Origin: a virus
Lineage: Duplodnaviria > Heunggongvirae > Uroviricota > Caudoviricetes
Length of the DNA: 12,190 nucleotides
Reading direction: 5' to 3' (one strand)
Virus record (IMG/VR): IMGVR_UViG_3300022661_000085
Location: 1-12,190 of that record
The notes beneath the pieces are model-generated. The model did not search any database. It was not told the origin of the DNA and saw nothing but the letters and a program-made list of their open reading frames with translations. Position 1 is the stretch's first letter. Every line of letters starts with the position of its first letter. Made by a program: the position numbers and the translations under genes. Positions 1 to 12,190 of this stretch are shown here, piece by piece.

Positions 1-660
1 TGGAGTTGCTCGCATTCGGAGAGCGCTCCCACCAGTAACTGGCAATAATCCATCCGCCTCCGATAGATGCCGTAAAGTTCGGGGTTAGATTATACTTATC
101 CAATTCCGCCTGAGTGAGGTACATATAACCAATAGAGTCATTGCTCGTATTGATCCAAATATCTCCCTCTTTGACGTCATTCGCGGGATCCAAACTGGGA
201 TCATCTGCCGCGCTATAGAAGGTAGCATCATCCTCGACCATACGACCTCTGAATTTCAAACGTCTACCATTGCTCGTAAACCACGAGATAGCAGTACCTT
301 CGCTCGCATAAGGTTCGGTTGTATAACCGCCGACTTCTCTGTTAGCTGCAAGGTAAATCTTGTCTTCCGAAATAACAATCTCGGTAGACTGACTACCCGC
401 GCTCGCGCTAATCTTAACCGTCTTAAGTATGTTACGCCACTGAATAGGAAGTGCATTGACAAGGCGCGTATTACAGAATGTACGCATCAAGCTCGCATCC
501 CAACCGCCTGCGTTAGTGTTCGTGCTGTTCATCCAGTATCCACGACCGTCAAGCAGGTTGTTCGCTATAAGCGAAATCTTTGCTTTCGCGCTCGTTCCTG
601 TTCCTGCAAGTCTGTATCTATCCGTACCACAGAATTCCATTCTCAAAGGCTCACGACACC
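1..660 (-). other. DUF6273-type (C-type-lectin-fold-like) C-terminal domain of the giant protein, main part
   Basis: Motifs MNSTNTNAGGWDASLMRTFCN, NALPIQWRNILKTVK, SEDKIYL..NREV, EG.AISWFTSN.RRLK and WWERSP match the pattern I recall for this family. Confidence 0.75.
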
Positions 661-3600
661 AAGATGCTAATTCGTATGCATTGGTTTCTCCAAGGTCATC
701 GTACCAAACCTTACACCAGTGGATAATACCCTTGGCGTAATAGTCGCATCCGCCGTCACCATATCTAACCGCACCGAGAGTAACCGGTACATTGGTAGCA
801 GTGGCTCTGGTTCTCGTAAGAAGAGTACGAGTGATTGCATCCGCAAACCTTGCGCCGTTACCGTTAGTGGTCTGACAACCGCTATATACATAGAGATGGT
901 TTTCACCAGCGCGGTGTCTGATAACAACAATATCACGATAGTGCTTCGAGCTTACGTAGTTACCTACAATCTGAGATTTGTCGCCCCACTGAATGCTCGG
1001 ATAGCTATTGAACCTCAGCCTGAATCCTTCGCTTCCCTCTTCCTCGAAAGCAGATACAAGGGTTGCATTGGTATCGGTAGAGTCGCACGCATAAGTGAAG
1101 TCGATAGCCATCGTGAAGGATTTCTCGTTGTCGCCGAACAGATATACATCTGTGTCAATAGCAGTTTCTCCGTCCAAAACAAGAGGCGTATCAACAGGTA
1201 CGATTTCCTTGCTCTCGATGTTCGAGAAATTCAAGTCCGTACCCATAGTAATATCGTGATAGTCCTTATCAACGAAGTATTCGTCAACGTTTGCAAGTCC
1301 GTTTGCCGCAGCAGTTGCCACCGCATAGATTTCTGCAACGTTCATTTCGCTAAGGTCTTTCGTGCCGGCAGAAGGCAGATTTGCTACCTCCCAAACGGCA
1401 TATACACTCATATTACCGCGCACATAACCTGTGCTCTTATCCCAACCTGCAAACATCTTACCCGAATATACGCTCGTATCGAATTCGTTTGCGGGCGTTT
1501 CTCCTGCATAAACCGCATCGGAACCGTATTCCACGGTTTGCTCGTCAAGCTTCAAGCCACCTTCAGCATCATACCAAGCGACGGTATAAGTGCGAACGGT
1601 AGCAGTAAATACAGCAGTAACAACTCTTGCTTCCAGAACGGGGCTTGTAAGCTCATTCCAAGATGCGAAAGCATAGCTGTACTGAGGCGTGCTTGCCTTA
1701 GTGGGAACATCGTCAAGAAGTCCTGTTGCAACAGGATCAGGCGGAGTCTGTCCTCTATCTACATAGCAGGAACAAAGCTCTGTGCCAGTATCATCAACGT
1801 ATGTTACTTTATACTGTTCGATAAGGTTAGCGGAGTTATATCTTACAACGAGACCGTCCCAAGCTTCCTCGTAGTTCGCCAATTCTTGGCTTCTTACCTG
1901 TCCGCTGATGTAGACTTGTCCCGAGAGACTTGATTCATTGAGGTCGAAAATGTCATTCAGCAACTCAGTGGTCGCCAAAGCATTATCGCCCGTCCAGTCG
2001 ATACCTGCGAGCGTCAAGGTTCTCAGCGTATCAACCGATTTCTCAACCATCGTCTTTTCGTCAATCAACGAATGTTCAATAGTCAAGTGCTGAAGACTGT
2101 CCGTAGACATCTGGAAGTCCGTAAGGTTCTGGAGGTTCTGCATTCTCAACGTGTTGATAGTGTCAGGCAGATGCGCCGTTGTTACCTTACCGTTTTTAGC
2201 GAATGCAACGCCGCTGATAGAAGAACCCTCGGCATACAGCTCAAGAAGGTTATAACACTTCGTCAAGTCAACGATAGAGTTCAAACCTGTCATATTTCTG
2301 ATGTCCAGATACTCAAGCAACTTGTTGTTACCAAGCGCGAGAGTAGTCATAAATGTGTTGGTGTAGCCTGCGGTCGTACTACCAATCGTAAGTCTCTGCA
2401 AGCGCGATGCCTTAGAGAAGTCGTTATCGCCGACATAACACTTGGAAAGGTCGCCGATGCCTTGAATGAACGATGCACCGTAGATCAGCGTAATATCCGC
2501 AGCTTCGAGTCCTTCGGGATAAGGAATGGTGTATTCAACGCCAGCCTTTGCTCTTACGTTATCCTTGTGTCCGTTGTAGAAGCTGAAGCCGATATACATA
2601 TCGGAATAAGGAGTCAGATAGAGCGTGAAGTCCTTGGGAACTACTGCGCCAACAGGGTTATTGAAACGCAACATTATCTGGTCAGCCGTTGCCGTCTTAC
2701 CAAAATACTTAGTTGCGAAGTAGATTTCTTGGTTTCTCTCAAATTGTCTACGCTGATACTTCTTTCTACCGTTCATCATTTCTCTGAAGAAACGAGGGTT
2801 AGAAGCGCCTGCGATACTGTTATCGATAGAAACACCTTTGTAAGTACGAAGGTACTTACGCTCAATGTCAATTCTCCACAATTCCTCGGGGAATTGGTTC
2901 TGAGAGTTATCCCATTGAGTGATAAGTCCGTTAGAGCTCCAAGCGTTAACGTCTTCGCGGTTAACATACATAGCCATAAGCTCTGTCTTGAAGAGGTCGC
3001 GGATTCTGCAGAAGAACTTGCTTTCCGCAGCTCTGTAGATATAAGAAGATGAAGGATCTCCGTCAACGTAGAAGTCAACGTCTTCTTTACCATAAGGCAA
3101 CACAAGCTTACCGGTGTTGTCAATACCCAGAGAGGTATCAAAGTCGTATCCGAAGGTCAAATCCCATCTGTAAACGCCATCGTCGCACTTTCCGTAGTGC
3201 CAGAAGCTGTTCTTTGCACGGTTATCAACCATCGTATAGCGCTCGGTAAACAGGTAGTAATAAAGCGCAGAATCAACTACGAAGTAATTCTCAAGGTTAT
3301 CGTGGAATTCTTCATCCGTAGAAGTAACTACGAACTTATAGAAGTCTCTCCAAGCGTCGATATTGGCTTGTCTTTCCTCGTCTGTAATGCCCTTCTTCTC
3401 ATAGCGGAACTCGTAAGAACCGTTACCAAAGGACTTGAATTCTCCTTCCTTATATTTATAAGGAGCATAGAGATCGTCGTAAGCGGTGTTTCCAGCCTTC
3501 CAGTTTGCGGGAGTACAGATAGCATTGCCGTAACCTGTCGGGAACTCTGCGAGAGCAACGTTGTAGTCTGTGATTTCGATTACGCACTCTTTGGGATCGT

Positions 3601-6600
3601 TCTTGTCGTTTACACGAGTATCGTCCGTCTTCTTAGAGTCGCCCACATTACCAAATGCATAGAAATGCCAGTTAGTATCATTGAACTCTCTGTGAGTGCT
3701 AAGGTCTTCGTCAGCTTCTCTGATGAAAACTACGCAGTTGTGGAACTCCATACAGTCTTTAACCTTGGAGTCTGCGACCTTCGCTGAACGCTTGAAGGGG
3801 TTGAATGTGTTATATCTGTTAGCCATCAACGCATTGTTTGCGTTCTCAGAAGATGCGATATTAACCTTAACGTTGAGATAGTCGGTAGGAACGGAATCTC
3901 TTGTGAGGGTGATTGTCTTGCCGGTTGTACCGTCGCTGAAAGTGAACAGTGATGTATCTCTGTCCATAATAAGGTCAAGGTTTCTTCCCGCGTATCCGTA
4001 TTCGTTAGACGATGTACCCTGTCCCGAATGGCGTGCGCCGGTGCAAGTCCAGTTGTCGAGAACGGGATCTCCGTTCTTGTAAATCATCTGAACCGTAGTG
4101 CCGTCAATCTTGTTGTCCTTGTCGTTCGTAAACCAAGGAGCCTCAACTTTGATAATTCTCAAGTCAGGGCATCTCTCAGCAAGAATCTCGGGAGTAAGGT
4201 TGCCGTTTTCATCATAGATTTCGTTTCTGTCGTGGCGAGAAATCATCTCGTCAGAAGTACGTGCGTCAGTGATGAAGTTCTGAAGAATGTCGCTATCCGT
4301 CAAGTTGAACTCATAAGCTCTCATTCTGTAGATGTAAACATCGCAGTCAGGAGAACCAATAACGATTTCGACAGGCTCGTACTGCTTGATAACGTGGTTG
4401 TTATCGTAGAGCAAAGGTCTCAAGCCAACGCCGTCTTCGTAGGTCATAATGTAGGAAGTAACATCTTCGCCGTCCCCAATGGGGCAAATATTACATTCAA
4501 ACTCGATTGCATCTTCCTCACTGTAAGGAACATACAACTCGTCTGCGCTGGTGTTAATGTATGCCTCGTGGACATTCATAACAAGTCCAACTTTATCGTC
4601 CGCCAAGCCGTTAGAGCAGGTCAGGAACCTTGCGTTGTCTTTGCGAACGTTTGTAGTTTTAAAGATTACCTTGAAAGCAGAACCGCTTTCCTTGGCATCC
4701 TTTGCGAACATCTTGTAATTGATTGTCGCATATGTACCAGATTTAATGCAGAAATATTCCTCGCCGGGAATAGCATTTCCCTCTTCATCTCTGCTAATCT
4801 GATATCCGCCGTTTTGCCAGTCGAAGTTATCAGAAACACTCATACTGATGGCGGGGTTGTTTTCGTCAGACCAAAGCCTGTTTGCGCTACTGTTGGTGCG
4901 TCCAACGGGGTTAAAGTCAAAAACGTATCCGTCAACGGTTTCGACGTCGAATCCGATATCGGTCGTATTGATTACGATCTCAACGTATGTAGCACCGCAA
5001 CGAATGATGAGGTGATGCTCGCCAACCTCGGTAAGCTTAACGCTCCATTCGCCCTCGGAACTTTCCAGAGTTTCCTCGCCAACAACTTCGCCGTCAACCT
5101 CTTTTGTGATTGTGGGCGTACTCGTATTGGGATCAACAACATAGAAAGGAATAATCATCGTATTGAACTGTTTCAGCGTAATCGCGCCATAAAGGTCGTT
5201 ACGATAAGCGCAACCGATAACGGGGGTTCCAGCATCTTCATCGAACCAAACAAGGTCGTAGTAGATGTGTTCTGTTTCTACATCCTTACCACTGATAGAA
5301 GCGGTGATGTAGCATTCAAACAAGTGAGCGCCGTGAGCCTGCGCAGGGATAGTAAATCTCTTCGAGCTACCAGATGCGGTAGTGTCTTCGTAGCCAATTT
5401 CTGTGCCATCCATCTTGAAGTGCACACGCTTATCAACGGAACCATAAGGAACATAGTTAAAGAGAATACTTTCTCCAACGGTATACGTCTTCTTTGCAAG
5501 GTTTGCATCGGAAGGTTCAAGACGAATGTCTACGACCTGAACGTTCCAGATACGGGTAAGCATACTACCCGCGTCATCGTTAACCGTCAGTGAGAACTTT
5601 GTGGTACCGATAGGAAGTTCCTGACCGAGCAGTTGTCTTGCGTCAAAGCTGTTGTAACCCTGATTAAGAGTACCGCTTGCAAGAACCTTCGAGCCATTCT
5701 TCCAAGTGTAATAACCGTCAACGGTCTGTCCGTCGGTATCCACAGACGAGAAGTTAAACTCGATGTCTGCCGCGTCGGTAGGTGTGATAATCAAAGGGGA
5801 AGGTGTAATTCTCTCAACGGTAATAGTGGTTGAACCACCACCGCCACCTCCGCCACCAGAACCTGCGGCAAAGCGTGTTTCGCTTCCCTCGATCTTTTCG
5901 CCGTTTTTATCCTTCAGCCAGACCTCAACCATTTCAGCGTCGCCAACTGTAACGGTTGCGGACTCAAGTCCCATAGCTCCGCTGTCGGGAAGTTCAGTTC
6001 CCTCTCCAATGGGATCGCCCTCCGCGTCAACAAGAACCATAAGTTCCTTGCCGTCTTCGGTTTCGCGCACTTCGATGTCTTTGGGAACGCCGCCCTCGAT
6101 TTCTGTCTGCATTGCAGTAATACGCTCGTCAAGGCTGTCATACTCGCCCTTTGCATCTGCAACCTGATCAATGGTATCCGCGAACTCGTCGCGGTAACCC
6201 TTAGCTTGGTTAGCATACCTTTGGGCATCTGCCGCAGAACCTTCCGCTTTATCTGCAAGTGCCTGCGCCGCTTCGATCTGGTCTTGAGCATTTAAGAGAG
6301 CTTCGGATGCAGCCTCAGCCGACTCTGCAGCCGCGGTAGCAGAACTCTCTGCCTCTGCAATTCTCTGGTCAAGCTCGTCGATGTGGTCAACAACATTCTC
6401 AACGCGCTCAACGAGGCTGACAAGTACATCGTATCCCTCGTCTTCAGTGATGTCGGTTTCGTTAGTGGGAGCGTATTCAACGAGAACACTGAAGTTCAAG
6501 GTTGAGAATTTCTCGCCGTCCTTGATGATCGAAACATCACAAACGCATTTTCCTGCGACCTGAAGCATCCAGTTCGTAAGAGGTACAGTAACGGTACCGT

Positions 6601-6814
6601 CGGCGTTTACAACACCCGCAAAGTCGTGGCTTTCCAAGTCGGCTCTCTTTACGCCGAATACTACGGTTGCGCCAGAAGGAACGTCGATTTCTTCTCCGCG
6701 AGTGGTGATTGTTACTTTTAAAAATCTTGAATCCTCGTCGTACTGCTTTGCGTGCACAACTTTGTACGCATTTTCACGAGAGGTATCCAAGGTCAATTCT
6801 TGTGTAATTTTCAT
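1..6814 (-). CDS. Giant multidomain BppU-anchored tail fibre / receptor-binding protein (>=2271 aa, 3' end outside window; missing from ORF track)
   Basis: ATG at 6814-6812 preceded by AAGGAG (6826-6821, 6-nt spacer). I translated the frame to position 2 by hand and found no stop. It starts MKITQELTLDTSRENAYKVVHAKQYDEDSRF and ends ...GGGWIIASYWWERSPNASNS. The ORF track lists no ORF in this frame, consistent with a stop-free open end. Confidence 0.95.
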   Translation of the reverse strand, partial: MKITQELTLDTSRENAYKVVHAKQYDEDSRFLKVTITTRGEEIDVPSGATVVFGVKRADLESHDFAGVVNADGTVTVPLTNWMLQVAGKCVCDVSIIKDGEKFSTLNFSVLVEYAPTNETDITEDEGYDVLVSLVERVENVVDHIDELDQRIAEAESSATAAAESAEAASEALLNAQDQIEAAQALADKAEGSAADAQRYANQAKGYRDEFADTIDQVADAKGEYDSLDERITAMQTEIEGGVPKDIEVRETEDGKELMVLVDAEGDPIGEGTELPDSGAMGLESATVTVGDAEMVEVWLKDKNGEKIEGSETRFAAGSGGGGGGGGSTTITVERITPSPLIITPTDAADIEFNFSSVDTDGQTVDGYYTWKNGSKVLASGTLNQGYNSFDARQLLGQELPIGTTKFSLTVNDDAGSMLTRIWNVQVVDIRLEPSDANLAKKTYTVGESILFNYVPYGSVDKRVHFKMDGTEIGYEDTTASGSSKRFTIPAQAHGAHLFECYITASISGKDVETEHIYYDLVWFDEDAGTPVIGCAYRNDLYGAITLKQFNTMIIPFYVVDPNTSTPTITKEVDGEVVGEETLESSEGEWSVKLTEVGEHHLIIRCGATYVEIVINTTDIGFDVETVDGYVFDFNPVGRTNSSANRLWSDENNPAISMSVSDNFDWQNGGYQISRDEEGNAIPGEEYFCIKSGTYATINYKMFAKDAKESGSAFKVIFKTTNVRKDNARFLTCSNGLADDKVGLVMNVHEAYINTSADELYVPYSEEDAIEFECNICPIGDGEDVTSYIMTYEDGVGLRPLLYDNNHVIKQYEPVEIVIGSPDCDVYIYRMRAYEFNLTDSDILQNFITDARTSDEMISRHDRNEIYDENGNLTPEILAERCPDLRIIKVEAPWFTNDKDNKIDGTTVQMIYKNGDPVLDNWTCTGARHSGQGTSSNEYGYAGRNLDLIMDRDTSLFTFSDGTTGKTITLTRDSVPTDYLNVKVNIASSENANNALMANRYNTFNPFKRSAKVADSKVKDCMEFHNCVVFIREADEDLSTHREFNDTNWHFYAFGNVGDSKKTDDTRVNDKNDPKECVIEITDYNVALAEFPTGYGNAICTPANWKAGNTAYDDLYAPYKYKEGEFKSFGNGSYEFRYEKKGITDEERQANIDAWRDFYKFVVTSTDEEFHDNLENYFVVDSALYYYLFTERYTMVDNRAKNSFWHYGKCDDGVYRWDLTFGYDFDTSLGIDNTGKLVLPYGKEDVDFYVDGDPSSSYIYRAAESKFFCRIRDLFKTELMAMYVNREDVNAWSSNGLITQWDNSQNQFPEELWRIDIERKYLRTYKGVSIDNSIAGASNPRFFREMMNGRKKYQRRQFERNQEIYFATKYFGKTATADQIMLRFNNPVGAVVPKDFTLYLTPYSDMYIGFSFYNGHKDNVRAKAGVEYTIPYPEGLEAADITLIYGASFIQGIGDLSKCYVGDNDFSKASRLQRLTIGSTTAGYTNTFMTTLALGNNKLLEYLDIRNMTGLNSIVDLTKCYNLLELYAEGSSISGVAFAKNGKVTTAHLPDTINTLRMQNLQNLTDFQMSTDSLQHLTIEHSLIDEKTMVEKSVDTLRTLTLAGIDWTGDNALATTELLNDIFDLNESSLSGQVYISGQVRSQELANYEEAWDGLVVRYNSANLIEQYKVTYVDDTGTELCSCYVDRGQTPPDPVATGLLDDVPTKASTPQYSYAFASWNELTSPVLEARVVTAVFTATVRTYTVAWYDAEGGLKLDEQTVEYGSDAVYAGETPANEFDTSVYSGKMFAGWDKSTGYVRGNMSVYAVWEVANLPSAGTKDLSEMNVAEIYAVATAAANGLANVDEYFVDKDYHDITMGTDLNFSNIESKEIVPVDTPLVLDGETAIDTDVYLFGDNEKSFTMAIDFTYACDSTDTNATLVSAFEEEGSEGFRLRFNSYPSIQWGDKSQIVGNYVSSKHYRDIVVIRHRAGENHLYVYSGCQTTNGNGARFADAITRTLLTRTRATATNVPVTLGAVRYGDGGCDYYAKGIIHWCKVWYDDLGETNAYELASWCREPLRMEFCGTDRYRLAGTGTSAKAKISLIANNLLDGRGYWMNSTNTNAGGWDASLMRTFCNTRLVNALPIQWRNILKTVKISASAGSQSTEIVISEDKIYLAANREVGGYTTEPYASEGTAISWFTSNGRRLKFRGRMVEDDATFYSAADDPSLDPANDVKEGDIWINTSNDSIGYMYLTQAELDKYNLTPNFTASIGGGWIIASYWWERSPNASNS
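665..1230 (-). other. LamG/concanavalin-A-like domain 2 of the giant protein
   Basis: LDGETAIDT..SFTMAIDF..TLVSAF..GFRLRF..VVIRH..HLYVY..VTLGA..YAKGIIHWCKVWYDDL resembles a LamG beta-sandwich. Confidence 0.6.
1388..1813 (-). repeat. Two InlB B-repeat / Flg_new-like protein repeats
   Basis: YKVTYVDDTG..YVDRGQTPPDP..PTK..YSYAFASW..VTAVF, then YTVAWYDAEG..TVEYGSDA..P..MFAGWDKS..MSVYAVW. Both show the Y.V.(Y/W)...F..W...A.(F/W) pattern. Confidence 0.75.
1840..2460 (-). repeat. Leucine-rich repeat region
   Basis: Recurring LxxLxL/I units: RLQRLTIG, LLEYLDIRN, NLLELYAEGS, TINTLRMQNL, SLQHLTIEH, TLRTLTLAGI. Confidence 0.75.
2705..4150 (-). other. CotH-like atypical protein kinase domain within the giant protein
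   Basis: Ordered motifs: QGTSS (4021-4007), YLNVKVNIASSENANN, FGNVGDSKK, YEFRY, YYLFTERYTMVDNRAKNSF (D1197..N1202; 3226-3209), W..FGYDFDTSLGIDNTG (3148-3137), and the helical end RRQFERNQEIYFATKY. Confidence 0.7.
2820..2836 (+). repeat. 17-nt direct repeat, copy 1 (copy 2 at 7862-7878)
   Basis: ttatcgatagaaacacc is identical at both loci (19/20 when extended); both lie in KGVSID in frame. Confidence 0.85.
4265..4920 (-). other. LamG/concanavalin-A-like domain 1 of the giant protein
   Basis: FDFNPVGRTN..DWQNGG..FKVIFKTTNV..IMTYEDG..IVIGSPDCDVYIYRMRAYEFNLTDSDILQNF. The terminal 'I..R.Y...L...I..N' signature is typical of LamG domains. Confidence 0.6.
4930..5830 (-). other. About three beta-rich (Ig-like?) domains of the giant protein
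   Basis: Three ~95-aa beta-strand-patterned segments ending ..FSLTVNDDAGSMLTRIWNVQVV, ..GAHLFECYITA..EHIYYDLV and ..GEHHLIIRCGATYVEIVIN. The fold assignment is inference. Confidence 0.4.
5834..5857 (-). repeat. Gly8 flexible linker
   Basis: Codons GGT GGC GGA GGT GGC GGT GGT GGT between the N-terminal stalk and the beta-domains. Confidence 0.9.
6100..6420 (-). other. Ala/Glu-rich coiled-coil stalk
   Basis: LVERVENVVDHIDELDQRIAEAESSATAAAESAEAASEA..VADAKGEYDSLDERI; helical heptad-like pattern. Confidence 0.75.
6470..6814 (-). other. BppU N-terminal (baseplate upper protein, DUF2479-type) domain
   Basis: AKQYDEDSRFLKVTI..IDVP..VKRAD..GTVTVPLTNWMLQVAG...CDVSI..FSTLNFSVLVE matches the 'Q.D..SR.L' BppU pattern. 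Confidence 0.85.
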
Positions 6815-6820
6815 TTATTA

Positions 6821-6826
6821 CTCCTT
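6821..6826 (-). promoter_or_regulatory. Shine-Dalgarno AAGGAG for the giant gene
   Basis: AAGGAG-TAATAA-ATG on the minus strand. Confidence 0.9.
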
Positions 6827-6872
6827 TATTTCATTTTGCTTATTTTTTATTTAGTCATCTAAAACACAGGTT

Positions 6873-6896
6873 TCCGATGCTAATAAGCCAATCGGA
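6873..6896. promoter_or_regulatory. Operator-like inverted repeat TCCGAT-N12-ATCGGA
   Basis: tccgat at 6873-6878 and atcgga at 6891-6896, directly downstream of a minus-strand TTGACA (6909-6904). Confidence 0.35.
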
Positions 6897-6902
6897 TTAA
6901 GT

Positions 6903-6931
6903 TTGTCAATAGCAAGAATATCTTTTATAAA
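6903..6931 (+). promoter_or_regulatory. Candidate sigma70/sigmaA promoter, antisense to the tail genes
   Basis: TTGTCA (6903-6908) - 17 nt - TATAAA (6926-6931): 5/6 and 5/6 consensus with ideal spacing. Confidence 0.45.
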
Positions 6932-6954
6932 TCTCACACTCGCCTATTCACATA

Positions 6955-6985
6955 TATAAGGGGCGGACTTTTGCCCGCCCTTATA
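6955..6985 (-). terminator. GC-rich hairpin after the 119-aa gene (probable intrinsic terminator or stabilising stem; weak U-tract)
   Basis: Minus-strand RNA GGGCGGGC-AAAA-GUCCGCCC (8 bp including one G-U), extendable by flanking UAUAA/UUAUA, just after the TAA at 6989-6987. It is followed by CUUAUAUAU rather than poly-U. Confidence 0.65.
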
Positions 6986-6986
6986 C

Positions 6987-7346
6987 TTATTCTTCCTCGA
7001 TAAAATCAAGCAAGGGGAACATCTGCTTCATCGACAACTTAAGGTTGTCGGCAAGCTCCGCAAGCTTGAAACGAATGCCCGGATCTTCAGCTTCCGTTTC
7101 GCCGAGTTTTGCAACGTCGGCTTGGAAATCTGATACCTTCTCGTTGGGAACGATACTTGTCCCGTCTTTTCTGGTTTCGGCGTGTTTGCTAAATATCTTG
7201 CGTACTTCTGCTGTGTAAAACTCTTGATCGCTTTGAGTTTTAACGATGAACCTTGTCATCCAGTAAGAAAGATGTGCGCCGATATCTTCTTTGTCGGCAA
7301 ATCCTTCCAGCACGCTCCGTGCATTGATTATTGTTGATAATTTCAT
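6987..7346 (-). CDS. Small helical phage tail-associated protein (DUF1617-like)
   Basis: 119 aa. Pattern I..A...L......L.YW..R......FY......I..K...G...VP.EK..F..D...L..E...SM....L.DFIEE resembles small proteins that follow chaperone-bearing tail fibres. RBS AAGGAG lies inside the Tal 3' end; the start is 1 nt after the Tal stop. Confidence 0.7.
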   Translation of the reverse strand: MKLSTIINARSVLEGFADKEDIGAHLSYWMTRFIVKTQSDQEFYTAEVRKIFSKHAETRKDGTSIVPNEKVSDFQADVAKLGETEAEDPGIRFKLAELADNLKLSMKQMFPLLDFIEEE

Positions 7347-7347
7347 T

Positions 7348-10300
7348 TTAGATTTCTCCTTTAAGTTCCTTTATTTCTTTTTCAAGTTCGGCAACTCGTG
7401 CCTTTAGTTTTTGGATTTGCAAAGTATTTATAGCGATAAATTCCTCGTAACGCAATCCATATGTTTTATCTTCATCGGATCCGATGCATACTCCGGCAAA
7501 ATCTTGTAAGCTAATACCGGCTCTAAGTAGGCTTTGCTCAACGTCCTGAGCGATAAAACCAACGTGCCGCCTGTTACTGTCCGCCTTTTCATAGATGAAA
7601 GAAACAGGTTCCAGCCCATCAAAAAACTCTTCATAAGATTCCGAAAGTGGTTCTACGCTGTGTTTTTGTCGTGCGTCACTGGTAGTGATTGAGGCAGTAT
7701 ACGCTCTAACACTACGCCAAACGTGAGTATCATCGCCCAAAAGATATCCAGACGAAGAAGTTGCGGAAGTATTCGGGCAAAAGCTTCCAAGAGAGTATAA
7801 AATATTGTTTGTTGCACTGATGTTAACCGAACTAAAAGCGACGCTGCTGCCATAAGAACTTTTATCGATAGAAACACCCTTAACAACAAACTTTTGCGTG
7901 CTGTTTTTTCTTATATGAACCTGCTCAAATTTTATACTTCCCGAATTGCTTCCCTTTGGGATATCATATGAGAGTTCTTTCTCGTAAGTAGTTTTGTCAA
8001 CCCACCCATTGAGTAATGTCCATTCTTGAATAGCATACTTGAGATAGAATGTCACGTGATAAGGTACAAGAAGAACTCCGCTGTTGCTTATACCATAATT
8101 GCAAGTTACGCTACAAGCGAATCCTGATCCAACATATTCATCTTCATCTTGTTCACTGCCGACAAAATTATTGAGGGTTATAGTTTGCGTTACAGTTTCG
8201 CTTGCCGTATTTGCTTTGAATCTTATACCCGCGCCACCAATGTTTTTTATTTCGAAATCTCTATTTCCAGAGGTAGCTATGTAAGATACGGTGTCCTCGT
8301 TATATATAGTAACGTCGTTAGCCAAATTAAATATTGCCTGCGTTGGGAAAAAGATGGACTGCGCGTTAAGCTTAATATACTCACTCTCAAGTCCATCACC
8401 AGTAATTTGAAACGCTCCAATATTACCATCTATTGCGTTAATGGTGCCTTCGATATTAGCACCAGTCGCAGTCAATATGCCGTCAGCATCAACTGTGAAA
8501 TTCGGGAATACTATATATGGCGAAGCGCTCAAATCAATCTTTGCGCCCGATGTGCAGGTAAATCCAGTTACCTTATACCCACCCCAAGCAATCACAGCCG
8601 ATAATTCCGTCGGATACAATCCGTTCATAGTGTTGAAAAGAATTGCTGATGTAGTCAACACGCATTCATAAGTTACCACATTACCCGAAAATGTAACTAC
8701 GGCATTAGTAAAATTGCCACTGGTTATATGACCGTTGTATTTATATCTAACTTGGCTTATAGCTGCGTCGGTCAATTGGTCTGCTGAATCAACCGTAAAT
8801 GTCCCTCTCATGATGTAGCTGAAGTGTCCAGTGGTACCCTCGGAAGGTCGAAGGATTTGAGTAGGGTTTTTAGGTGTGTCAACAACGTTGCCAGACACGC
8901 TTTCTCTTTTTTCATCAGCATCAAAACCAGCAGATTGAATTACGCCACCTGTAATCGTTATATTGCTGCAGGTAACGTTTCCATCTTCGTCAATTTCAAA
9001 TGTGTTATTGTTGCTTATCAGGCTTCTTACAGAAATATTTCCGTAAAAGTAGGCGTCTCCCGTTACATTTGCTTGAAAAACAGTTGCTTTGCTCTGACTA
9101 TTTTTTATCGTTATGCCGTTTTGATCGAGGGTAATATATCCGCCTTCGTTGGAAATTTTTAACTGATTGCCCAGCATCAAAGAACCAACTATTACTTCCG
9201 CTAATAATCCGTATGCTTGCTTCTCGATGGGGTTCCCATCACCATCATAGTCGGTATATGCAACCTTACCAAGAGCCGTTTTAACAGTTTGCCAACTGTC
9301 ATCCGTAAAGAGGATAACGTTATTTATCATACGCACCTGTTCTTTTTCAAATAAATCCTCAGCCTTGCGCCTTCTTCCAAGAATGCCCGTATTGTCAATA
9401 ACAAATTCTTGGTTGCTCATATTTTTCTCTGCAAGACGCAATGTTTTATCAAGGGGGTTAAGTAACAGTTCTTGGATGGAATTCTTATGCGTGCTGTAAT
9501 CCATAAGTTCATTCCAATTAGAGATGACATTTTTAGATGTATTTGAAGCCGATGTTATTAAATCGGCAAAAGTATAACCCCAGTCATTCAATTTAAGAGC
9601 ATTTGAAAAAACAAGTTCAAAAGTATCGTCGCCGTTTTCCAAGCTAAATCTCATCTGTGTCAATGCGGGATAATAATATACGTCCTTCGTTTTCTCAATA
9701 GTAATTACCTTGCCCAATGCAAGTTCATACATAAATTGACGGAAGGCATATATTTTGATGAATTTTATAGAATTCACACTAATGGAAAATCGAGGCTGGC
9801 AGACACGAGCAATCTCTTTTTCGCCACAAGCAAGAAGCTCTCTCGCCAAGTCAATTGCTTCCTCTGGCTTGGTACTATCTAAAACAGCAAGTGTGTCATT
9901 GTTATAATCTCCCTCTATCCAATAGTGGCGTAATTCTGATAATAGGGCTGGGGTATCTTTGAAATAACTCAAAATATTGGCTTCTTCGGCAATCGCTTGC
10001 ATATCTACGGCAATTTCATTTGCGTTTGCCTCATACTCATCAACGAGCGCTTGTTGTTCGTCATCAAGTTTTCCCCAAGCAGTTAGCCATCTGGACACAT
10101 CGGAATAAGTGCTATATCTTTCAATTGCCGCGACATGCTGAATCTCTTCGCCTGTAGTTTGATCAACCTTACTACCACGGACAACCTTACAGTATGTTTT
10201 CAAGTCGCTATCTATAAAGTAAATGTCTTTTTCGTCAGCCCAATCTGTTAAAACGCCAGCCAAGGTATTCGTCACCCCTGAACTAATTGCGAAAGTTCCA

Positions 10301-11697
10301 CTGCTTAATGTTGGTTGAGTGGTTGAAAACTGCCAAACGTCCCCGGGCTTTGGATGTGATGTAGCATAGAACGTACTCTCGTCTAAACTTTTGCGAATAC
10401 TATATAGCTTCCAGTCATTGTTATTTATCTTCGTCTTGTCGGGAACAGACACGTTTTTACTTTTAAGAGATTTATAGGTTTCTCCGTCATACATTACAAC
10501 GTCACCTATATCATACCCTTCGTCAGTAGGAGGTTGTTCCCAATCATATATTACATCAAAAGATTCGGCTAAAAAGATAGCATCATCTTGTACCGTTTTA
10601 AGAGCATATTGGTCTCTGACAGTTTCTAAGTCTTGAACCTTTTTTCTGGTGTATGCAGTTTCAGAAGATGCTTCTGTGTGTGCTTCATACGCCTCGCGCA
10701 GATCGGACACGAGGTCAGTGTATTCTGCCTTCTTGCTATCGACAAGAGCCTTCCAAGCTTTAATCTTATCGATAAGTGCTTGCGACATCCAATGATAATT
10801 GATCTCATCCATATAGTAGCTGAAGTCAACAATGTAATTTGTACCCGTTGGGTTTACAGTTCTTATATCAAGATCTGTACCGGAGCAGTTCAGTACGGTA
10901 ACGATATCGTCCGCCTTTTCAGTAGTCTGCAATTCATTCATTACATTATCGAACGAAAGATATATATTTGTCTGCTGCGCAATGTCTTCGACTCTCTTGA
11001 CTTTAATTGCGTGATGCATAAAGTCGAAATCAAAGATTACTTCAAAAGCGTTTTCCACAGAGTTGACCATAAAGTCATAGGCGTACGTAGCACTGTTCTC
11101 CTTAAAAGCTCTGCAAACATTTTGTTTACTGCCTTTGACATATTTCAAACTGTGGTCAACCCATACGATTGTCCAATCGCCGTAGTCCACGTCGGGTTCG
11201 GATTCGTCTGGCGAAATTGCCACCTTGATGCCCAACTGCTGATAAAGCTGACCGACAACCGAAGGAATTGAATCTTCTTTATCTGAATCATAGTTTACGT
11301 CATAAGGATCGGACTCATCGTAGAATTTGTAAAGTCTTCCTTCGCAGAAAAATCCTTTCTCTTTGAACGCGCACTGATGTGATTGCGCGGTAATGGACAT
11401 ATAGGCGGTTAAGCCATCTTCGTTTTCTACCGCTTGAGTAATCTGGAACCAACCGATTTCATCAATCTTGATAAGTCTTTTGGTCGCCAGACGAGAGTAG
11501 TACGGAAGTTCAAACATCGTTCCGTCTTTACTCTTTTCGTACTTTGGAGCTTCAAACGTAAGCTCCGAGAGGTCATTGAACCTCAACACGAAATTCCTGT
11601 TTCGCGCCTTGATTGCGCTAATGGGTTTCATGTCGGGATTGTGAAGATACAGGATTGGATCCTTAATCTTCTTATAGTGATCAAACAAGAATTCCAT
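7348..11697 (-). CDS. Tal / tail hub (prophage tail endopeptidase-like) protein with fibre extension and C-terminal intramolecular chaperone, 1449 aa
   Basis: Directly after Dit, with RBS AAAGGAGGAA. The N-terminus resembles minor structural/tail-hub proteins (RFNDLSELTF, GWFQI..SITAQS, FDF). Also NQEFVIDNTGILGR..EQVRMINNVILFTDDSWQTVKTALG, repeated F.(I/V)D.DG..T motifs and a C-terminal SDARQK chaperone. Confidence 0.88.
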   Translation of the reverse strand: MEFLFDHYKKIKDPILYLHNPDMKPISAIKARNRNFVLRFNDLSELTFEAPKYEKSKDGTMFELPYYSRLATKRLIKIDEIGWFQITQAVENEDGLTAYMSITAQSHQCAFKEKGFFCEGRLYKFYDESDPYDVNYDSDKEDSIPSVVGQLYQQLGIKVAISPDESEPDVDYGDWTIVWVDHSLKYVKGSKQNVCRAFKENSATYAYDFMVNSVENAFEVIFDFDFMHHAIKVKRVEDIAQQTNIYLSFDNVMNELQTTEKADDIVTVLNCSGTDLDIRTVNPTGTNYIVDFSYYMDEINYHWMSQALIDKIKAWKALVDSKKAEYTDLVSDLREAYEAHTEASSETAYTRKKVQDLETVRDQYALKTVQDDAIFLAESFDVIYDWEQPPTDEGYDIGDVVMYDGETYKSLKSKNVSVPDKTKINNNDWKLYSIRKSLDESTFYATSHPKPGDVWQFSTTQPTLSSGTFAISSGVTNTLAGVLTDWADEKDIYFIDSDLKTYCKVVRGSKVDQTTGEEIQHVAAIERYSTYSDVSRWLTAWGKLDDEQQALVDEYEANANEIAVDMQAIAEEANILSYFKDTPALLSELRHYWIEGDYNNDTLAVLDSTKPEEAIDLARELLACGEKEIARVCQPRFSISVNSIKFIKIYAFRQFMYELALGKVITIEKTKDVYYYPALTQMRFSLENGDDTFELVFSNALKLNDWGYTFADLITSASNTSKNVISNWNELMDYSTHKNSIQELLLNPLDKTLRLAEKNMSNQEFVIDNTGILGRRRKAEDLFEKEQVRMINNVILFTDDSWQTVKTALGKVAYTDYDGDGNPIEKQAYGLLAEVIVGSLMLGNQLKISNEGGYITLDQNGITIKNSQSKATVFQANVTGDAYFYGNISVRSLISNNNTFEIDEDGNVTCSNITITGGVIQSAGFDADEKRESVSGNVVDTPKNPTQILRPSEGTTGHFSYIMRGTFTVDSADQLTDAAISQVRYKYNGHITSGNFTNAVVTFSGNVVTYECVLTTSAILFNTMNGLYPTELSAVIAWGGYKVTGFTCTSGAKIDLSASPYIVFPNFTVDADGILTATGANIEGTINAIDGNIGAFQITGDGLESEYIKLNAQSIFFPTQAIFNLANDVTIYNEDTVSYIATSGNRDFEIKNIGGAGIRFKANTASETVTQTITLNNFVGSEQDEDEYVGSGFACSVTCNYGISNSGVLLVPYHVTFYLKYAIQEWTLLNGWVDKTTYEKELSYDIPKGSNSGSIKFEQVHIRKNSTQKFVVKGVSIDKSSYGSSVAFSSVNISATNNILYSLGSFCPNTSATSSSGYLLGDDTHVWRSVRAYTASITTSDARQKHSVEPLSESYEEFFDGLEPVSFIYEKADSNRRHVGFIAQDVEQSLLRAGISLQDFAGVCIGSDEDKTYGLRYEEFIAINTLQIQKLKARVAELEKEIKELKGEI
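7351..7680 (-). other. Peptidase_S74 intramolecular chaperone (autocleaving)
   Basis: TSDARQKH..LEPVSFIY..HVGFIAQDVE..GLRYEEFIA..QKLKARVAELE. Ser1340 (7680-7678) and Lys1345 fit the S-D-x-R-x-K dyad; terminal coiled coil. Confidence 0.92.
7862..7878 (+). repeat. 17-nt direct repeat, copy 2 (copy 1 at 2820-2836)
   Basis: Same sequence, inside the Tal coding region. Confidence 0.85.
10402..10542 (-). other. CBM5/12-like (chitin-binding type 3) module in Tal
   Basis: W....EGYDIGDVVMYDGETYKSL..N.SVP......DWKLY matches the Y..GD.V.Y.G..Y....N...P....W pattern. Confidence 0.65.
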
Positions 11698-11710
11698 GTA
11701 TTCCTCCTTT

Positions 11711-12190
11711 TTAGAATCCTATCATAGCATAGGTCGGCACTGTAATCGTCATCGTTCCTTTAAGGGTTATTTGAAGGACATTAACGCCGTGCTGCAACCT
11801 AAGCCAATTTTTATTAAAGAGGGAAAGCCTGTCCCCTCCAATTGTGCTTTCGATTATTTTGAGTTCGTTATCAACCGTGATTGTTTCAGTATTCCTTACT
11901 CCAGTAAACTTGAACTCAGCTTGAACCGCTTCACTCGTATTCAGAATGGTTACATTTCCCTCTTCCGTCATTGTGAAAGTTACGATGGGATAGATGTAAT
12001 CATCTGGGATATCGGAATTGTTGACAATTTTTACGGTCTGCGTCGTGCCAGTTCCTGTCACGGTTATTTTCTTCGGTCTGCCATATGCAAATATGGAGTC
12101 GAATTTTGCCGTTACGGTAAAGCCGTGGCACCTTCCTCTGACATATATTAAATCTGCGCTTGTAAAAACGCAGTTGTAATAATAGTCTTC
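11711..12190 (-). CDS. Distal tail protein (Dit), 5'-truncated by window
   Basis: The frame is open past the track's start (12061) to the edge: EDYYYNCVFTSADLIYVRGRCHGFTVTAKFDSIFAYGRPKKITVTG..YIYP..ITVDNELKII..FNKNWLRLQHGVNVL. The DS.FAY and W.RL..G.N motifs and the position before Tal fit Dit. Confidence 0.85.
   Translation of the reverse strand, partial: EDYYYNCVFTSADLIYVRGRCHGFTVTAKFDSIFAYGRPKKITVTGTGTTQTVKIVNNSDIPDDYIYPIVTFTMTEEGNVTILNTSEAVQAEFKFTGVRNTETITVDNELKIIESTIGGDRLSLFNKNWLRLQHGVNVLQITLKGTMTITVPTYAMIGF

Follow-up and report, generated by a model that had tools for sequence, protein, structure and literature searches.

A stop-less giant reading frame at a phage contig edge encodes a probable tail fibre with a CotH kinase-like domain and a retroelement-diversified tip

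What is encoded by a 6.8-kb stretch without stop codons that is missing from the track of open reading frames (ORFs)? This question is raised by IMG/VR virus record IMGVR_UViG_3300022661_000085 (Caudoviricetes), of which we analyzed bases 1-12190 (hereafter the window, 12,190 nucleotides in all); the record is linear, 76,190 bp long and 52% complete according to CheckV. An earlier note, made from the letters alone, had proposed a hidden tail protein of at least 2271 residues that combines a BppU anchor, two LamG-like domains, a CotH-like kinase, leucine-rich repeats (LRRs), InlB-B repeats and a tip likely to be targeted by a diversity-generating retroelement (DGR). We conclude, with a probability of roughly 0.85, that the frame encodes a lateral fibre or receptor-binding protein of ~2,300 residues, which belongs to the baseplate of a siphophage from the gut with a genome of roughly 100 kb. 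Its tip is a DGR target, and template-adenine-specific diversification is observed in this lineage.

In the open-ended ORF listing, a single frame stood out, extending over 2271 residues from an ATG at position 6814 to the window edge (base 2) without a stop. Translation of 2..6814 on the minus strand, a strand that the earlier note had not given, contained zero in-frame stops, and by our own arithmetic the chance of 2271 successive sense codons is approximately (61/64)^2271, or ~1e-47. Because the window starts at base 1 of the record, the frame exits the contig itself and not just the window. Full-length relatives with 90–97% identity are 2298-2305 aa long and have a conserved C-terminal ending in common; therefore, ~34 C-terminal residues are missing here, and we estimate the mass of the protein at ~250 kDa for ~2,300 residues. 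The lack of a stop is probably the sole cause of the absence of the frame from the ORF track. We also considered a circular contig, in which joining of the ends would stop the frame after two codons, and ruled it out: no terminal repeat is present and the relatives have 34 further conserved residues, so the stop on end-joining is a coincidence. The parts of the gene are as follows, with residues numbered from the ATG.

2..6814, minus strand: giant tail-fibre gene, of whose ~2305 codons 2271 are present; 3' end lost at the contig edge
6434..6802, minus strand: BppU_N baseplate-anchor domain, residues 5-127 (Pfam PF10651, E 1.2e-10, 41.7 bits, cut-off 23.1)
6080..6412, minus strand: Ala/Glu/Gln-rich predicted coiled-coil stalk, residues ~135-245 (composition; PHROG tail-fibre and coiled-coil Pfam noise matches)
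5828..5863, minus strand: glycine-rich linker, residues 318-329 (read directly)
4940..5827, minus strand: beta-rich stretch, residues 330-625 (only phrog_14959 and phrog_24896, both of unknown function)
4265..4921, minus strand: possible first ConA/LamG-like domain, residues ~632-850 (lead only)
2699..4132, minus strand: CotH kinase-like domain, residues ~895-1372, modelled from residue 980 (AlphaFold2, Foldseek, VIA-align, Pfam)
3137..3226, minus strand: putative catalytic loop D1197-N-R-A-K1201-N1202 and metal-binding Y1223-D1224-x-D1226 (invariance in 70 sequences)
1835..2692, minus strand: LRR solenoid, residues ~1375-1660, modelled to residue 1570 (VIA-align Z 10-11)
1376..1813, minus strand: two units of InlB B-repeat (Listeria-Bacteroides repeat) type, residues 1668-1742 and 1743-1813 (moderate support)
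653..1240, minus strand: second ConA-like lectin domain, residues ~1859-2054 (nearest CBM40, LamG and pentraxin folds)
2..631, minus strand: DUF6273 C-type-lectin-like tip, residues 2062-2271, with the last ~34 residues beyond the contig (Pfam PF19789)
1..52, minus strand: first 52 nt of the DGR variable repeat, inside which the contig breaks (matches the variable and template repeats of relative L003)

The frame, the anchor, the CotH-like fold, the LRR module, the second LamG-like domain and the DGR-target tip anticipated by the earlier note were each borne out by these assignments, the Pfam cut-off for CotH being reached only on the excised domain, and nearly all of the note's interpretation is supported. 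The note's sensing-and-modifying adsorption device would be a candidate function.

The placement on the baseplate is indicated by the N-terminus and by gene order. The BppU_N match spans profile positions 3-128 of 142, and the gene bearing it sits in a distal-tail module, next to Dit and Tal. The order Dit, Tal-like, 119-aa gene and giant gene, all on the same strand, is kept in relatives with a tape-measure gene ahead of it, and the locus is a siphophage distal-tail module. It weighs against our reading that gene order and the BppU_N match, both read from sequence, are what it draws on for a fibre on the baseplate. Among the relatives fetched, the N-terminal 320 residues were present only in the ~10 closest, and distant members had other N-termini; no BppU_N domain was found at E <0.001 in the N-termini of ten more distant family members. 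This distribution fits an exchangeable adaptor matched to the baseplate of each phage. A homotrimer prediction for residues 1-300 gave a score of 0.39, the mark being 0.42, which speaks neither for nor against a trimer. Residues 330-625 had no match to a Pfam family, and a sequence search with the whole protein against solved structures returned only noise on the glycine linker.

We analyzed the middle of the chain with an AlphaFold2 model of residues 980-1570 built on 70 relatives (mean predicted local distance difference test score, pLDDT, 93.9). A Foldseek search with this CotH-LRR model retrieved only the CotH kinase of Bacillus cereus, 5JDA and 5JD9, below 1e-3 (E 4.5e-7, probability 1.00). 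When aligned with 5JD9 using VIA-align, model residues 1-393 gave Z 22.9 at a root-mean-square deviation (rmsd) of 3.1 Å over 277/358 residues, and the next match had Z ~11. As modelled from residue 980, the domain has the atypical protein-kinase-like fold of CotH; its limits were set at residues ~895-1372 because residue 73 is where the alignment of the solved chain starts and because a conserved glycine-rich motif lies at residues ~932-945. The Pfam CotH family (PF08757) matched the excised domain with 25.1-25.5 bits (cut-off 23.8), and it was matched in 7 of 22 relatives.

Positions of the kinase type are conserved within this domain. D1197, K1201, N1202, F1204, Y1223, D1224, D1226 and G1230 are invariant in the 70 sequences (34–94% identity to the present one), as are K1061 and E1080 further upstream, and the average identity per column of the set is only 28%. 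In the model, the D-x4-N loop comes after a helix matching αE and Y-D-x-D follows 27 residues on. This arrangement would correspond to the layout of a kinase catalytic loop and a metal-binding motif, with roles assigned by way of the protein-kinase-like fold. In Bacillus subtilis, CotH is inactivated by D228Q or D251A, at residues 23 apart (PMC7821199). To judge from the invariant positions, the domain probably binds nucleotide and metal and is probably catalytically competent.

Several observations argue in the other direction. On the whole protein, Pfam CotH scored 22.0 bits, below the cut-off of 23.8, and the match covers only profile positions 123-221 of 322. Sequence profiles of the family built on the CotH region failed to find 5JD9; the similarity to CotH is, in other words, at the level of the fold. 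The equation of D1197 and D1224 with D228 and D251 of CotH is likewise drawn by analogy.

If the domain is active, its candidate substrates would be a glycan or protein of the host envelope at adsorption, or virion proteins during assembly, the latter by analogy with CotH, which phosphorylates proteins of the spore coat. It is possible, though less likely than not, that an active kinase displayed on the virion is brought by the tip, lectin and LRR modules to a host-envelope glycan or protein, which it would phosphorylate in adsorption, or alternatively that it phosphorylates tail proteins in assembly.

A substantial possibility, though short of even odds, is that in the same fibre the CotH-like domain has no catalytic role and serves as a scaffold or adhesin, namely a pseudokinase used for binding; the fibre would then bind receptors through its several modules, with no enzymatic action. 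The sequence identity to B. cereus CotH is only 10%, the Pfam CotH match is partial and borderline, and little ATP is present outside cells, all of which would suit such a scaffold. In addition, fungal CotH proteins have been studied in spore formation and virulence and not as demonstrated kinases (PMC9973265). Nevertheless, D1197, K1201, N1202, D1224 and D1226 stayed invariant in the divergent set described above, and invariance at kinase-type positions is expected of a conserved active or nucleotide/metal site, not of a scaffold.

We consider it rather doubtful that the kinase acts inside the infected cell, phosphorylating itself or other tail proteins at virion assembly and not the host surface at adsorption. 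Such a role would be served by the ATP available in the cytoplasm, and it would agree with a kinase-like domain embedded in a structural protein. There is also a precedent in CotH, an assembly-time kinase of a proteinaceous shell with CotB and CotG as its targets (PMC7821199). However, among the neighbouring genes we noticed no Ser/Lys/Arg-rich repeat substrate like CotB or CotG.

Evidence for the tip as a DGR target came from its fold, its pattern of variation and the repeats that accompany it. PF19789 (DUF6273) matched the incomplete tip with E 6.6e-9 and that of a full-length relative with E 8.4e-15; in gut phages, DUF6273 has been reported as a C-lectin mutated by DGRs (PMC10743442). The tip was modelled together with the second lectin on residues 1840-2305 of a 97%-identical relative (AlphaFold2, pLDDT 92.9). 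VIA-align (model range 1..466) placed it on the N-terminal domain of the Thomasclavelia ramosa IgA peptidase 9qa6 (Z 16.2, rmsd 2.3, 172 residues aligned), a domain called C-type-lectin-like by its authors (PMC12237041). Between proteins that are 90–97% identical overall, the last ~45 residues show massive differences on a fixed scaffold, and hypervariability is confined to them.

We compared the end of the fibre gene with downstream copies in relatives that span 27–97% protein identity. In L003 (91% identity), the 3'-terminal 139 nt of the fibre gene differ from a copy 1107 nt downstream at 19 positions, 18 of which are adenines in the downstream copy (binomial P 1.4e-8). Mismatches between template repeat (TR) and variable repeat (VR) fell on TR adenines in the same manner in L009 (94% identity, 19/20), in L012 (27% identity, 24/25) and in the near-identical IMG/VR phage L014 (22/23). 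In the relatives, the TR lies ~1.1 kb downstream of the VR of the fibre gene, together with a reverse transcriptase (RT) carrying GxxxSQ. For example, the RT adjoining the TR in L003 (18297-19586) has GSQISQ and YMDD, i.e. the DGR-type GxxxSQ and YxDD motifs.

The window agrees with this pattern as far as it extends. Positions 1-52 differ from the TR of the near-identical phage at one adenine and at a boundary base. A 13.7-kb contig from a possible source sample (record 11, run X4) is identical to window positions 1-900 and has a second copy of positions 1-49 lying 1060 nt on, which differs at position 37, a template adenine in the sense of the gene. Several short contigs from possible source samples branch at positions 35-49.

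Some findings count against our reading of the tip. The window itself holds merely 52 nt of the VR, and neither a TR nor a DGR-type RT was found on its own 76-kb contig. The sole RT of that contig (54186-55580, 464 aa, followed by RNase H) has GTPFSP and YADD, and it was rejected as a DGR RT since it is without GxxxSQ and has no TR/VR pair. The conserved 264-aa ORF between VR and TR (L003:17043-17837), in the usual place of Avd, had neither an Avd match nor any other significant Pfam match; a 137-aa ORF further on in L003 showed a faint match to the Avd family PF05635, at E 0.031 only. Two relatives with a 94%-identical fibre, L007 and L008, have no TR and only a 185-aa RT fragment (L007:17055-17872; same place in L008), an apparent decay beside a target gene that is intact; a DGR element can thus be lost. 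These two relatives and the lack of a TR and DGR-type RT on the contig would suit a DGR that is inactive in this particular phage, with a frozen former VR as its tip. We regard this as improbable, considering the template copy on the contig identical to positions 1-900, the alternative contigs branching within positions 35-49, and the TR of near-identical L014 with its 22 of 23 mismatches at adenines.

Some further observations concern the retroelements of this group. L003 carries two paralogous DGR-type RTs within 4 kb, namely the one described above and a second at 21686-22651 (GSQVSQ), both with YMDD. The second follows the 137-aa ORF, and no second TR/VR pair was found near it within the 27-kb locus. 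In an 861-nt contig (runs X1 and X4; records 3 and 14), the conserved repeat core (window positions 3-36) occurs twice, 628 nt apart, at a depth above that of the phage contig; the two copies may represent a second VR/TR pair, belonging to a different element present in these samples.

Between the kinase-like domain and the tip, the fibre carries its fixed modules. The LRR part of the model (model residues ~396-591) aligned with SHOC2, internalins and plant LRR ectodomains (Z 10-11, rmsd 2.3-2.8, 112-142 residues); by Pfam, LRR_4 reached only E 0.43 in this sequence, and 2 of 36 relatives matched at E <0.001. The InlB-B repeats of the earlier note are less firm. Residues 1668-1813 were similar to Flg_new clusters in Atlas features (0.95, 191-194 shared features), and PF09479 (Flg_new) was matched in 2 of the 36 relatives (best E 1.3e-5). 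A Pfam search gave no match to InlB-B repeats in this sequence, however, and a BLASTP comparison of the two units with each other was not significant.

The two LamG-like domains that the note had proposed likewise differ in how well they are supported. The second matched 6er4 by Foldseek (E 1.4e-5), and VIA-align gave Z 16.3 to this sialic-acid-binding CBM40 structure and Z 10-12 to LG/LNS and pentraxin domains (laminin, agrin and neurexin LG domains at Z 10-11). Residues ~1859-2054 are thus modelled as a ConA-like jelly roll closest to CBM40. For the first, the lead comes from language-model features in Atlas, which gave a similarity of 0.94 to Laminin_G_3 clusters with only ~111 shared features. 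Pfam, a PDB profile and hhalign were all negative or non-significant for residues ~632-850: a PDB profile search with residues 625-985 returned nothing, and hhalign of the putative first domain against the second gave E 0.045 and a probability of 1%.

It is very improbable that the protein is no virion part but an adhesin encoded by a prophage and displayed on the surface of its lysogen, like many DGR targets of bacteria. In favour of such an adhesin, relatives occur in contigs of metagenome-assembled genomes (MAGs) with an integrase nearby, and bacterial surface proteins typically contain LRR, InlB-B and lectin modules. Against it, by inspection the N-terminus is hydrophilic without a signal-peptide-like stretch, the protein begins with BppU_N, and every relative examined has the gene immediately behind those for the tape measure, Dit and the Tal-like protein, all on one strand.

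Taken as a baseplate fibre, the protein might work as follows. BppU_N would dock it on the hub of Dit and Tal, whose genes lie just upstream; the coiled coil would serve as a stalk, and the glycine linker would free the remainder as a long multi-lectin arm. Adenine-directed mutagenesis would re-draw the ligand-binding face of the tip, by which the phage could follow changing ligands on the host surface, and the fixed lectin, LRR and InlB-B modules would supply extra, constant contacts.

We compared the fibre with known systems. BppU, the upper baseplate protein of lactococcal phage TP901-1, has ~300 aa and holds a separate receptor-binding protein. The present fibre shares with it the PF10651 N-terminal domain and the location in the distal-tail module; unlike BppU, it fuses ~2,000 residues of binding and enzyme modules in one chain. 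With the spore-coat kinase CotH of Bacillus (5JD9/5JDA; PF08757) it shares the atypical protein-kinase-like fold (Z 22.9, 277 residues), and the spacing of its two invariant acidic motifs would match that of the aspartates for catalysis and metal binding in CotH. In contrast to CotH, with which the identity is 10%, the domain has ~480 residues here (against 360) and forms part of a structural protein of the phage.

In Bordetella phage BPP-1, the tip protein Mtd, a classical DGR target, is small and trimeric. Together with the DUF6273 DGR targets of gut phages, namely tentaclins and their partner targets (PMC10743442), it has in common with the fibre a VR-bearing C-type-lectin-like domain, adenine-specific mutagenesis and a neighbouring DGR RT. 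In tentaclins, the lectin is N-terminal and followed by Ig domains in a protein of ~570 aa, whereas here the lectin ends a multi-domain chain of 2,300 aa. The N-terminal domain of the T. ramosa IgA peptidase was among the two best solved matches and was the only one mapping to the tip; unlike the phage tip, it belongs to a bacterial surface protease and is not known to be diversified. Residues ~32-282 of 9qa6 and the phage DUF6273 DGR tips have a W-L-R-[ST]-P ... G-V-x-P-x-F core in common, across which a weak profile match of the tip to 9qa6 was obtained. This shared core suggests common ancestry of a bacterial surface-enzyme domain and hypervariable phage tips.

The closest resemblance is to proteins described in three papers. 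Wu et al. (2018) listed as category f1 phage-linked DGR targets of ~2000 aa that carry CLec3 variable regions besides motifs of CotH and Laminin_G_3 (PMC5758913). Benler et al. (2021) noted as 'currently unstudied' phage proteins in which a CotH kinase domain is joined to a hypervariable C-type lectin (PMC8008677), and Macadangdang et al. (2024) described a Bacteroides DGR 'domain group 3', whose members exceed 2000 aa and contain CotH (5JDA), motifs for carbohydrate binding and LRRs (PMC11601372). By description, these CotH/Laminin_G_3 targets are like the present protein in a length of >2000 aa, a CotH-like region matching 5JDA, ConA/LamG-type modules, LRRs, a C-terminal C-type-lectin tip diversified by a DGR, and a phage or prophage context. 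The earlier note had pointed to uncharacterised CotH giants in gut phages, which matches this literature; our search for functional work on CotH/C-type-lectin DGR giants found nothing beyond these three descriptions, none of which tests function. The three papers give neither an anchor domain nor a domain-by-domain map, whereas here a BppU_N N-terminus stands behind Dit and a Tal-like protein; the present protein also adds two putative InlB-B-type repeats, and its host lead is Eubacteriales rather than Bacteroides.

The fibre is accordingly a further member of a protein class that has already been noted and is functionally unexplored. To this class we add a domain map backed by structure, a BppU_N anchor encoded behind Dit and Tal, residues that are candidates for catalysis, the resemblance of the second lectin to CBM40 and a link of the tip to the lectin domain of an IgA peptidase. 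Giant fibres of this class are common and occur in gut phages of people and livestock, and they appear to pair a programmable, DGR-driven binding tip with a conserved, apparent active site of the kinase family. With the domain map, the anchor assignment and the candidate catalytic residues, a functional test of the kinase becomes straightforward. If true, either role of the kinase would, to our knowledge, be the first case in which an enzyme with a protein-kinase fold is shown to act within a phage tail fibre.

There is also a practical warning for annotation: DGR repeats break assemblies, so that the target gene can be left without a stop at the contig edge and lost from gene calls. In this phage group, contigs are prone to stop within the variable repeat or shortly behind it: the present one breaks off after 52 nt of the repeat, and the contig of relative L002 ends 20 nt after the fibre gene (L002:16918-16938).

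A search with the full-length protein retrieved >1,200 proteins, and a search with the CotH-LRR core gave 1,706 clusters at 50% identity; remote copies in isolated Bacteroides phages are annotated as 'hypothetical protein'. A fibre copy with 94% identity was found in an Eubacteriales MAG and more distant copies in Clostridia, Ruminococcus and Phoenicibacter MAGs. The host of the phage is probably a member of the Clostridia (Eubacteriales). The sequencing runs containing the stretch were faecal and gut metagenomes, several of goat and cattle.

The remaining features of the window lie upstream of the giant gene.

6821..6825, minus strand: AGGAG ribosome-binding site (Shine-Dalgarno), 6 nt 5' of the ATG of the giant gene (read directly)
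6961..6980, minus strand: GC hairpin resembling a terminator, which closes the 119-aa gene ahead of the giant gene
6987..7346, minus strand: conserved 119-aa gene just upstream of the giant gene, no function assigned
7348..11697, minus strand: Tal-like tail protein of 1449 aa that ends in a Peptidase_S74 chaperone domain
11711..12190, minus strand: Dit-like distal tail protein, C-terminal part (PF20753, E 1.6e-21; phrog_33, Dit)

Outside the window, a search of Rfam around the RT of the contig returned nothing; the region of this RT (54186-56535) is flanked by repeats of 38-41 nt and by a 71-nt palindrome. The Peptidase_S74 domain of the Tal-like protein is an intramolecular chaperone. Among close relatives, this protein ranges from 1226 to 1449 aa in length, and DNA identity is only 76–79% in its gene, compared with 86% in the fibre gene.

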